Below are positions 20,176 to 21,735 of a stretch of 41,595 nucleotides of DNA, piece by piece. The position numbers and the translations under genes are program-made. Positions within the stretch are counted from its first letter, which is position 1. Each line of letters begins with the position of its first letter. This stretch comes from a virus (lineage: Duplodnaviria > Heunggongvirae > Uroviricota > Caudoviricetes). The DNA lies in IMG/VR virus record IMGVR_UViG_2541047952_000001; one strand, 5' to 3'. The notes beneath the pieces are model-generated. The model had not been told where the DNA came from, made no database searches, and worked only from the letters and a program-made list of their open reading frames with translations.

Positions 20176-20862
20176 GTGAAAACACTGGCAGAACGATTAA
20201 AGATAGGTAGAGAGAAAGCTGGCATGAGCCAAGCTCAACTAGCTGAAAAAATTGGACTTTCACAACAATCTGTAGCCAAAATAGAGAATGGCGAAACTCT
20301 ACAACCGCGCAAAATTAAAGAAATTGCAAAAGTTTTAGGTGTATCACAAAAGTGGTTACAACTTGGTATTGAAGACAACGCATCCATACCTGATCTTGTT
20401 GTAAAAGAAGCAGAAAGCACCGCATTAGACCCCGATATTTTCGTAAACATTCCTGTTTTAGATGTCGAGTTATCGGCAGGTAACGGATGTCTGGCTGAAA
20501 TAGTTGAATCAGCTATTGACTGGTTTCCGTTAAGAAGAGCAGATTTGAGAAAATCTGGCGTATGTGCATCTAATGCCAAGATCGTAAAAATATGGGGGAA
20601 CAGTTTATTACCGGTTCTCAATAATGGAGATCTTGTTGCCGTTGATATTTCTCAAACCGTTCCTATTCGTGATGGCGATCTTTATGCCGTACGAGATGGT
20701 GTATTGCTAAGGGTTAAAATACTTATCAACTTACCTGACGGTGGCTTGATTCTTAGAAGCTTCAACAAAGATGAGTACCCAGATGAAATACTCACCTTTG
20801 AAGATAGACGAGCCAGAATTCATGTTATAGGTAGGGTATTCTGGTCATCGCGAACTTGGTAA
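20176..20862 (+). CDS. CI-like prophage repressor (HTH plus S24 LexA-type autopeptidase domain)
   Basis: GTG start; N-terminal HTH (MSQAQLAEKIGLSQQSVAKIENGE) and C-terminal S24-like region (KIWGNSLLP...LLRVK). Confidence 0.85.
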   Translation: MKTLAERLKIGREKAGMSQAQLAEKIGLSQQSVAKIENGETLQPRKIKEIAKVLGVSQKWLQLGIEDNASIPDLVVKEAESTALDPDIFVNIPVLDVELSAGNGCLAEIVESAIDWFPLRRADLRKSGVCASNAKIVKIWGNSLLPVLNNGDLVAVDISQTVPIRDGDLYAVRDGVLLRVKILINLPDGGLILRSFNKDEYPDEILTFEDRRARIHVIGRVFWSSRTW

Positions 20863-21735
20863 TGCATCGAAAAGCATTTCTTCAGAAATAATTTTAAGTT
20901 TTGCACCATTATCATCCCTATAAGATATAGCCTTTTCGATCTTCCTTCCGTGACTTGAGAATTTCCAATCACGGGAGGAAAGCGTCCCAATTACTAAAAA
21001 ATCCAACTTTTGAGTAATTCCACTACTGATGTTCCCACCAGCATTTTTAATCAAATTTTCAACTACGGCTCTCTTTCCTGCAACAAAAGTGCCTGTAAGA
21101 CAATAGGTTTTACCCTCTAACTCTATCGAAGCCCCTACATCAATAGGCAGCCTGGTCGCCAAACCATCCACCACCCCACTTTCCAAGTCACATCCTGTGA
21201 AGTCTACTAATGCCTTATGTAGAGTTAAACTCTCATCTTCAGTAATAACACCATCTTTAAGAATTTCCTTTACAAGTGCATAAAGTTTTTTTCCTGGGTA
21301 GTTGTTCTTCAAAGCTCCATTTTGCTCAAGCCACCAATTAAGATATCTTATTTCTTCTTGAGTTAAGTTCCGATCAGCAATTAATCCTTTACATAGTCCA
21401 TTAAGTAAATGGACATCTACATCCTTGGAGTAAAAATCAATTTCAGGGATATCAAGAATTTCCCTCTGTATTTGGAGAAGGCTATTTTTAAGGTCATCAC
21501 GTTCTTCTGATGTGATTATTCCATCCGCAAGAATATCCGACACCCGTGCTGATAGACTTTTTATAACTCCATTATTGATAATCTGCTTTGCTTCAAGTAA
21601 CCATGTATCTAAGTAAAGAACCTCCTCTTCACGGACAACTCCATCTGCAATGATTCCATCAATGATGCTAATCAAGTTAGCAAATAACTTGTCCCGGTTC
21701 TGTGTGTAATTAAAAGCGTAAAGCGCGTCTTCCAT
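20845..21735 (-). CDS. TerB-like repeat plus BRCT-domain protein, unknown function (immunity-region moron)
   Basis: Preferred start ATG at 21735 (MEDALYAF...) with AGGAGG 5 nt upstream. Four tandem roughly 38-aa repeats share an ADG-[VI]-[IV]-x-x-EE core; the C-terminus (GKTYCLTGTFVAGKRAVVENLIKNAGGNISSGITQKLDFLVIG) is BRCT-like as in LigA. The 3' end overlaps the cI 3' end by 18 nt. Confidence 0.7.
   Translation of the reverse strand: MEDALYAFNYTQNRDKLFANLISIIDGIIADGVVREEEVLYLDTWLLEAKQIINNGVIKSLSARVSDILADGIITSEERDDLKNSLLQIQREILDIPEIDFYSKDVDVHLLNGLCKGLIADRNLTQEEIRYLNWWLEQNGALKNNYPGKKLYALVKEILKDGVITEDESLTLHKALVDFTGCDLESGVVDGLATRLPIDVGASIELEGKTYCLTGTFVAGKRAVVENLIKNAGGNISSGITQKLDFLVIGTLSSRDWKFSSHGRKIEKAISYRDDNGAKLKIISEEMLFDALPSSR

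Follow-up and report, generated by a model that had tools for sequence, protein, structure and literature searches.

A BRCT-domain gene between the cI-like repressor and OL/PL of an Escherichia coli lambdoid prophage: an accessory gene that may encode a sensor excluding superinfecting phages

The 41,595-nucleotide virus record IMGVR_UViG_2541047952_000001, the whole of which is hereafter called the window, carries an Escherichia coli lambdoid prophage. Between its cI-like repressor gene and its left operator and promoter (OL/PL) lies a gene for a 296-amino-acid protein that ends in a BRCT domain, here referred to as the BRCT gene. Comparison with related loci identifies it as an autonomous and dispensable accessory gene. 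Our tentative reading, which we hold to be quite possible, is that the product, expressed in lysogens, would sense phosphorylated ends or nicks in DNA and exclude superinfecting phages. This reading is based on the position between cI and PL, the family-wide link to lysogeny modules, the autonomy of the gene, the modular evolution of the family and the conservation of the BRCT pocket. It draws furthermore on a similarity to the candidate defence family PDC-S48, on a promoter-like footprint next to PL and on the best match in the PDB, the BRCT domain of RFC1 that binds 5'-phosphorylated DNA.

The gene and its nearest partners are located as follows.
20845..21735, minus strand: BRCT gene (RefSeq WP_000389078.1; PHROG 3989), encoding 296 amino acids from an ATG at 21735.
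21740..21746, minus strand: ribosome-binding site AAGGAGG, 4 nucleotides before the ATG and conserved in 21 diverged loci.
20176..20862, plus strand: cI-like repressor gene, encoding 228 amino acids of the HTH_3 plus Peptidase_S24 family; the convergent partner of the BRCT gene.

Over positions 19800-22300 the window shows 100% identity to E. coli strain Res13-Sevr-PER07-33 and 99.9% to LH13-b, and annotated E. coli prophage genes match the BRCT gene at 100%. The annotated gene order comprises lysis genes, a Q-like antiterminator, replication genes, ymfL and a cro-like gene, followed by the cI-like XRE/S24 repressor, the BRCT gene, a small open reading frame (ORF), an ECs1072-family gene, yfdP/Q/R and the integrase. 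The window repressor is assigned by annotation, and its Pfam domains were read on an 81%-identical Citrobacter orthologue. A preliminary description of this DNA had placed a 296-amino-acid gene in the slot that holds rexAB in lambda, between a cI-like repressor and OL/PL. The ORF, the annotation and operator-like words shared between the two control regions agree with this placement. The near-perfect ribosome-binding site proposed there corresponds to AAGGAGG at 21746-21740, and the proposed 18-nucleotide overlap with the 3' end of the convergent cI gene is found at 20845-20862, where the two genes meet tail-to-tail. A longer, GTG-initiated version of the ORF (306 amino acids) is mechanically possible, but the ATG is taken as the start because the homologues and WP_000389078.1 begin there. 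The G+C content of the BRCT gene is 38.0%, compared to 49.5% for the window. The immunity region as a whole (19792-22613, from the cro-like gene to the ECs1072-family gene) is AT-rich throughout, at 38-43% G+C versus the same 49.5%.

The status of the BRCT gene as an accessory is most evident from its distribution in E. coli. It is present in 48 of 5,426 complete genomes, always in a prophage, and at least 24 other complete genomes contain only a 59-nucleotide remnant of it. In E. coli 20Ec-P-124 (NZ_AP017610.1, 4534089-4541147), a clean internal deletion has removed 731 bp, equivalent to window positions 20989-21719. The surrounding immunity region, about 87% identical to that of the window, retains cI, OL/PL, the ribosome-binding site, the first ~16 nucleotides of the gene and the last ~145. 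As prophages have deleted the gene yet kept cI and OL/PL, it is dispensable for the immunity cassette and constitutes autonomous cargo.

Genomic context in other lineages was surveyed by scans of IMG/VR and GTDB. In the enterobacterial clade, all 80 of the 80 IMG/VR loci carry the gene tail-to-tail with a homologue of the same cI repressor (protein identity 56-100%), and the two proteins have diverged in parallel (56-100% for the BRCT protein versus 49-99.6% for cI). The same arrangement is found in Citrobacter, Serratia, Providencia, Proteus and Rosenbergiella genomes. In several other phage lineages the gene also adjoins a repressor gene, in a different order. Vibrio phage K139, like Kappa, has the order cI-orf2-glo-int in an annotated lysogenic operon, which places the family member orf2 beside the exclusion gene glo. 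P2-like prophages of Aeromonas have cI, the BRCT-family gene and a 232-amino-acid ORF, then int, and in Pseudomonas phage phi1 the BRCT-family gene begins 30 nucleotides past the repressor gene. All three (K139, Aeromonas, phi1) have the gene downstream of cI on the same strand, separated from it by 25-100 nucleotides. The partners that follow vary, being glo in K139, the 232-amino-acid protein in Aeromonas and none in E. coli, which makes a two-gene system unlikely; none of these downstream partner proteins has a Pfam or PADLOC match.

The linkage of the family to cI is strong but not obligatory, since lone copies occur in islets and at chromosomal sites without a repressor. In Vibrio, Paraglaciecola and Salinivibrio, the BRCT-family gene is found in small integrase/resolvase islets that lack a repressor. 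Other chromosomal copies are situated between ordinary genes, once next to a KAP NTPase and once next to a PIN-PhoH ATPase. The islets of V. parahaemolyticus, Paraglaciecola, Salinivibrio and V. harveyi surround a lone BRCT-family gene with a DUF6538-type tyrosine integrase and/or a serine resolvase, and some of them also hold a 304-amino-acid protein of no detectable family. In Sulfurimonas phage SNW-1, the BRCT-family gene (3929-4552) diverges from cII and occupies the site at which one would look for a repressor, with a gene of the thermonuclease family after it.

The family itself is large. A profile search recovers 5,305 cluster representatives at E<=1e-3, of which 1,066 remain at E<=1e-30, with sources in Enterobacteria, Vibrio, Aeromonas, Pseudomonas phages and marine Gammaproteobacteria. 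Exhaustive profile searching resolves two size classes: proteins of ~300 amino acids with two N-terminal helical modules, and proteins of ~210 amino acids with only the second of these (module B), so that the short homologues match the BRCT protein from about residue 100 onward. Longer relatives have additional parts: transmembrane segments at the N-terminus, LigA-like HhH together with further BRCT units, or domains of no known kind. Two extension domains of ~170-190 amino acids recur among these relatives, one of them at either protein end, and neither these domains nor the 304-amino-acid islet protein has a Pfam or PADLOC match. Such variety, with one or two modules, transmembrane anchors, HhH plus BRCT fusions and unknown-domain fusions, is typical of conflict genes and fits a sensor or adaptor core of the kind that conflict systems employ. 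Taken together, the comparative context favours an autonomous accessory function that would be expressed in the lysogen.

The protein is organised into the following parts, given with residue ranges and window coordinates.
21442..21714, minus strand: helical module A, amino acids ~8-98; two helix-loop-helix hairpins with the acidic pairs D31/E38 and D71/E78.
21178..21441, minus strand: helical module B, amino acids ~99-186; hairpins with D121/E128 and D161/E168.
21121..21177, minus strand: glycine-rich linker, amino acids 187-205; conserved G187 at its start, with G181 just before it in module B.
20866..21120, minus strand: BRCT domain, amino acids 206-290; pocket residues T214, G215, R222 and K265, and an S-R-D-W insertion at 254-257.

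The C-terminal domain is assigned with the greatest clarity. Pfam PF00533 matches amino acids 206-290 with 29.0 bits (cut-off 21.3; E 1.3e-6), and a BRCT match is obtained in 40/40 aligned relatives at E<=1. The structural model of the BRCT protein shows the expected alpha/beta fold, a four-stranded parallel sheet flanked by helices. In a phmmer search of the PDB the RFC1 entries 2ebu and 2k6g come out best (E 0.002), and R222 falls on the RFC1 arginine R423 in the alignment. Partial matches in NCBIfam and PHROG involve only the BRCT part and lead to the C-terminus of LigA and to phage ligases, and the fold matches of the domain are likewise BRCT domains of LigA and RFC1. The LigA-type BRCT domain named in the preliminary description is thus upheld, as one of the LigA/RFC1 kind. 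The resemblance to LigA and to RFC1 p140 extends to the aligned and conserved T-G...R...K pocket. In 188 diverse relatives, T or S at position 214 is present in 185/188, G215 in 186/188, R222 in 183/187 and K265 in 181/186. The HMMER alignment sets R255 opposite the RFC1 lysine; K265 is probably the pocket lysine instead, since it starts helix alpha2 in the model and R255 is less conserved (123/185). What separates the domain from its LigA and RFC1 counterparts is the S-R-D-W insertion between beta3 and alpha2, which is specific to the family and nearly invariant, with W257 conserved in 184/185. Identity with the NAD-dependent ligase LigA itself is rejected: only the last ~50-85 residues match, at 20-30 bits compared to NCBIfam cut-offs of 369-1051, and the BRCT protein lacks the ligase catalytic, OB, Zn and HhH domains. 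The RFC1 BRCT region reportedly binds 5'-phosphorylated ends of double-stranded DNA through these pocket residues (Kobayashi et al. 2006, 2010).

AlphaFold2 with a 40-sequence alignment gave a confident model of the protein (predicted local distance difference test, pLDDT, 87; predicted template modelling score, pTM, 0.81). The model has eight long helices at amino acids 10-180, with a short turn at 140-144, followed by the glycine-rich linker and the BRCT fold. The helices of module A span residues 10-28, 36-50, 56-69 and 76-94 (block pLDDT 80-95), and those of module B residues 104-118, 126-144, 148-159 and 166-180. Comparison of residues ~15-88 with ~105-178 by hhalign identifies a duplicated four-helix module of ~88 amino acids (probability 99.4%, E 1e-21), within which odd and even hairpins are more weakly alike (E 1e-3 to 1e-5). 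The one-module and two-module size classes of the family bear out this duplication. An acidic motif occurs four times, its aspartates at residues 31, 71, 121 and 161. The preliminary description had read this as four tandem repeats of roughly 38 residues, each with an ADG-[VI]-[IV]-x-x-EE core. Four motif copies are indeed present, but they are spaced 40/50/40 residues apart and the actual unit is the duplicated two-hairpin module; the core fits units 1 and 2, while unit 3 reads ADRNLTQEE and unit 4 KDGVITEDE. Few positions are better conserved across the 188 relatives than the D-x6-E pairs (D121 in 180/188, E128 in 185/188). G181 and G187 are invariant in the 40-sequence alignment and are conserved in 169/187 and 166/186 of the wider set, respectively. 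A PDB sequence search with the N-terminal profile returned nothing meaningful.

These repeats had also been called TerB-like, and this assignment is not supported. The window protein has no Pfam TerB match at E<=10. TerB (PF05099) is matched only below threshold in 7/40 relatives, over TerB positions 12-65, the best match reaching 19.1 bits against a cut-off of 24.4 (E 0.0016). Comparison by hhalign with DjlA, E. coli TerB and a TerB alignment gives probabilities of <=1%. Against E. coli TerB plus 38 homologues the value is 0.6% (E 0.1), in a comparison whose TerB alignment is shallow and whose TerB-DjlA positive control reaches only 23.6%. A TerB-like fold is not among the structural neighbours of the BRCT protein either. 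What the protein does share with TerB and the N-terminal part of DjlA is a paired short motif at helix starts, [AS]-x-DG-x-h-x-x-x-E (compare SSDGVSSEEK and KSDGNFDQDEK in TerB), and paired DG-x5-E motifs at helix N-termini are present and strongly conserved. TerB, however, is a domain of ~150 amino acids with extra helices between its motifs, as opposed to the 88-amino-acid four-helix unit found here. TerB homology is rejected as a family assignment, the likeness being limited to the short DG-x5-E motif, and we conclude that the label 'TerB-repeat' should be dropped. Weak matches of the acidic motif to SHOCT, EF-hand and GA-like domains are sub-threshold noise around the DG-x-I-x-x-x-E pattern.

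The gene and its family are already known to databases by domain name and as a PHROG of unknown function. PHROG 3989, annotated 'unknown function', is matched over the full length (E 1.5e-128; amino acids 2-295 against positions 2-295/296), and the RefSeq name is only 'BRCT domain-containing protein'. No functional study of the family was found in the literature on K139 orf2, on BRCT in prophages or defence, or on PDC-S48. All of this agrees with the preliminary description, which did not recognise the pairing of such repeats with BRCT as a described phage function. Homologues in phages Kappa, phi1, FBPa47, D14L, PG1 and SNW-1 bear the database names 'DNA polymerase' or 'NAD-dependent DNA ligase'. 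Names such as 'DNA ligase' or 'DNA polymerase III epsilon' are over-annotations of these proteins, as the BRCT domain alone is shared.

PADLOC does not call the BRCT protein and returns only a weak, partial match to the candidate PDC-S48 (28.2 bits; amino acids 119-251 against profile positions 239-377/411). All 11 of the 11 family members tested, the window protein included, match this profile distantly, with E values of 1e-5 to 1e-10. The 145 PDC candidates were nominated for being embedded in BREX, DISARM or type I restriction-modification loci (bioRxiv 10.1101/2024.01.29.577857). The similarity extends over module B and the first half of the BRCT domain. It is confined to profile positions ~233-381/411, the N-terminal 230 positions having no counterpart in the BRCT protein, and membership of PDC-S48 is rejected on account of this partial match.

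The slot between repressor and PL is a hotspot for exclusion cargo, with rexAB in lambda and bstA in BTP1 (PMC8585504). A place in the cI-PL slot or beside a repressor is found in the window, in K139, Aeromonas and phi1, and at 80/80 IMG/VR loci. The BRCT protein has no Pfam or PADLOC match to RexA, RexB or BstA (KilA-N). BstA of the Salmonella prophage BTP1 (Owen et al. 2021) resembles it in being a single protein of ~300 amino acids with a nucleic-acid-binding domain and a second, unassigned domain. BstA is likewise tied to the repressor locus across diverse Gram-negative prophages, with a minority of copies outside prophages (PMC8585504). The two differ in that BstA has a KilA-N-like domain, compared to BRCT plus helical modules and no sequence relationship here. 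Moreover, bstA follows the repressor gene, whereas the BRCT gene converges on cI in Enterobacteria, and abortive infection by BstA has been demonstrated experimentally, whereas it is a candidate activity of the BRCT protein. With RexA and RexB of lambda the gene shares the slot between cI and PL, and rexAB is expressed with cI. In contrast to them the BRCT gene is single, has no membrane partner, shows no homology and lies on the strand opposite to cI. K139 Orf2 (NP_536630) is a true homologue with 32.6% identity over 95% of the length, the same architecture and a position beside cI. Its gene, unlike the BRCT gene, runs in the direction of cI, with glo and int behind it.

Expression of the gene can be approached through the following control elements.
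21781..21843, PL on the plus strand: OL/PL; -35 TTGACA at 21799-21804 and -10 TAAATT at 21822-21827 with 17-nucleotide spacing (10/12 match in a promoter scan).
21756..21784, minus strand: putative BRCT-gene promoter; -35 TTGAAC at 21784-21779, a 17-nucleotide spacer and TG-c-AAGGAT (-10 at 21761-21756).
21913..21942, minus strand: strong intrinsic terminator upstream of the BRCT gene and just upstream of OL/PL; 8-bp G+C-rich stem, 4-nucleotide loop and T-run.

The region is identified as OL/PL because the words surrounding its promoter are found again between cro and cI. The operator-like word ACATAAAGTTGT is identical at both places, and the PL-region word ATCACAACTTTTAGGTGTT matches ATTACAACTTAAAGGTGTT in the cro/cI intergenic region. 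Two operator-like blocks around PL (21781-21804 and 21817-21843) are near-invariant across diverged loci. Since the terminator separates the BRCT gene from the upstream minus-strand gene, it needs a promoter of its own. The minimum free energy structure of a 56-nucleotide stretch containing this terminator has -15.6 kcal/mol. On the plus strand the hairpin has no T-run, and transcripts from PL would meet a hairpin without a canonical terminator.

The putative promoter of the BRCT gene is proposed from conservation. An alignment of 21 upstream regions, from loci with 56-92% protein identity, shows conserved TTGA and TG[CT]AAGGAT elements around a spacer of which ~15 nucleotides are free to vary, with an A-rich leader and GGAGG downstream of the putative -10. 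The putative -35 abuts the near-invariant block that holds the -35 of PL on the opposite strand. The two promoters would thus stand back-to-back with starts ~85 bp apart, a geometry like that of PR and PRM in lambda. The leaders of cI and the BRCT gene are near-identical (ATCAAAAAAGAGAGG versus ATCAAAAAAAGGAGG), and the layout upstream of cI (20108-20178, plus strand) parallels that upstream of the BRCT gene (21733-21799, minus strand). Both consist of an operator word of the ACAACTTT type, a weak -35, a weak -10 and a leader ATCAAAAAA(A)G(A)GAGG. The upstream regions may be diverged copies of each other, or both may be under the same regulator. Expression of the BRCT gene would then be compatible with, and perhaps dependent on, occupancy of OL by cI, and such expression in the lysogen would match the co-transcription with cI in other lineages.

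With these elements a mechanism can be outlined. The preliminary description had suggested a lysogen-expressed sensor or effector of phage DNA, or a modulator of DNA repair or SOS, and these suggestions are still plausible. As a 'moron-like' accessory within the prophage immunity cassette, the BRCT gene would be expressed in lysogens alongside cI, and its product would serve as a sensor or adaptor. Its C-terminal BRCT domain would recognise some phosphate-carrying structure in nucleic acid that arises on the entry or replication of foreign DNA; candidates are ends with a 5'-phosphate, cohesive ends and nicks. The acidic four-helix modules, in which D-x6-E possibly binds cations, would serve for regulation, self-assembly or contact with a partner. 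The most likely outcome would be exclusion or abortive infection of superinfecting phages, in functional analogy to BstA or RexA. One conceivable route is that capping or occupying DNA ends or nicks prevents their sealing or replication. The most specific form of this proposal is doubtful. It would make the protein the first BRCT-based bacterial immune sensor, which recognises 5'-phosphorylated or cohesive ends or nicks and blocks sealing or replication, with the helical modules as a cation- or partner-controlled switch.

Several points weigh against an exclusion function. No enzymatic or membrane domain is recognised in the BRCT protein, nor is an effector domain. An indiscriminate binder of nicks or ends should be toxic, which implies that a step conferring specificity or activation is missing from the model. 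The putative promoter of the BRCT gene is weak by consensus and escaped a simple consensus scan, which detected no minus-strand promoter, and judged from the nucleotide sequence, repression of this promoter by cI at OL is equally possible. The PADLOC match is partial, at 28 bits, and leads to PDC-S48, itself only a candidate. In addition, several non-prophage contexts resemble ordinary chromosome, and the fact that the gene strictly co-diverges with cI in Enterobacteria would fit a role in the switch between lysis and lysogeny just as well.

This last possibility, in which the protein would be an accessory of the lysis-lysogeny switch, a sensor of DNA damage or structure that tunes induction or establishment via damaged or operator-proximal DNA or via RecA-cI cleavage, is judged unlikely. 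In 80/80 loci the gene is tail-to-tail with a member of one cI family and has diverged in parallel with it, which speaks for this role, as do cI adjacency in four phage lineages, overlapping convergent transcripts and a putative promoter embedded in OL. RexA offers a precedent, as it is a DNA-binding protein with exclusion activity that also biases the lambda switch (PMC11077077). The one relevant text found on the family, a 2026 preprint, mentions that cI and BRCT genes occur in certain regulatory modules of Roseobacter prophages and speculates that DNA damage is sensed there, a statement based on annotation only (PMC13345283). However, the gene has been deleted from prophages that keep cI, OL and PL. 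In 14 of 23 species-level loci a four-query tblastn search found no repressor nearby, and at the loci sampled with Pfam the neighbours are housekeeping or islet genes. The protein also lacks a helix-turn-helix or other sequence-specific DNA-binding domain. Deletion alleles and copies without a repressor thus disfavour an obligatory component of the switch, while the strict cassette structure in Enterobacteria keeps a role in the switch under consideration.

It is distinctly unlikely that the protein is a repair scaffold conferred by lysogenic conversion, bringing ligase or other repair factors to nicks or shielding them there and so indirectly lowering spontaneous induction. The LigA/RFC1 class of the BRCT domain, the fusion of some relatives to LigA-like HhH plus BRCT, stand-alone chromosomal copies and one chromosomal copy that adjoins an Fpg-type glycosylase are in line with such a role. 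That neighbour is nevertheless a single case, linkage to repair genes is not conserved, and the patchy, mobile distribution (48/5,426 complete E. coli genomes, always prophage) and decay of the gene by deletion do not suit a repair function. Very unlikely is a benefit to the phage itself at infection or induction, where the gene, transcribed from a promoter that cI represses through OL, would protect the ends of the phage's own DNA, block a ligase or nuclease of the host, or sequester a nucleotide-based immune signal. Some BRCT domains bind ligands of the ADP-ribose type, which speaks for such a role. The footprint abuts operator-like blocks, making repression as possible as activation, and in Enterobacteria the BRCT gene is oriented away from cI's own transcript. 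The genes of K139, Aeromonas and phi1, in contrast, follow cI on the same strand at gaps of 25-100 nucleotides in an annotated lysogenic operon, and copies outside phages would have no phage DNA to serve.

The interest of an exclusion function lies in the slot and in the domain. The repressor-adjacent slot has repeatedly yielded exclusion systems (RexAB, BstA), and the BRCT family occupies it in lambdoid, P2-like and Pseudomonas phages, the P2-like members including the cholera phages K139 and Kappa. A BRCT domain with an intact phosphate pocket is the sole recognisable functional domain of the protein. No characterised bacterial defence or lysogeny factor with BRCT as its core was found, nor was a counterpart of the architecture found among such proteins. 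The gene is small, single and portable, which makes it directly testable. A positive result would establish a new mechanism of exclusion, or else something new that feeds into the lysis-lysogeny switch, and would correct the widespread mis-annotation of family members as 'DNA ligase' or 'DNA polymerase'. If the immune-sensor reading were true, ~1,000 protein clusters that are uncharacterised at present would have a function, and phage-phage competition would also make use of BRCT recognition of phosphorylated damage signals, as known from DNA-damage signalling in eukaryotes.

Some further features of the window concern the surroundings of the gene. The first ORF after PL (21986-22207, plus strand) encodes 73 amino acids (68 in RefSeq) and converges on the ECs1072-family gene (22179-22613, minus strand). 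Their 29-nucleotide overlap is the second tail-to-tail overlap in the region, and no N-like antiterminator was recognised around this ORF. In one E. coli genome (NZ_CP180607.1, 878630-882391), an IS3-family element is inserted in the 2.5-kb immunity region, which is otherwise 99.7% identical. A tRNA gene (27064-27137, minus strand) directly follows the prophage integrase (about 25928-27046, by offset) and is probably the prophage attachment site. Beyond the tRNA gene lie intF and yagN/yagM of a second element, from which it follows that the window spans a prophage end.

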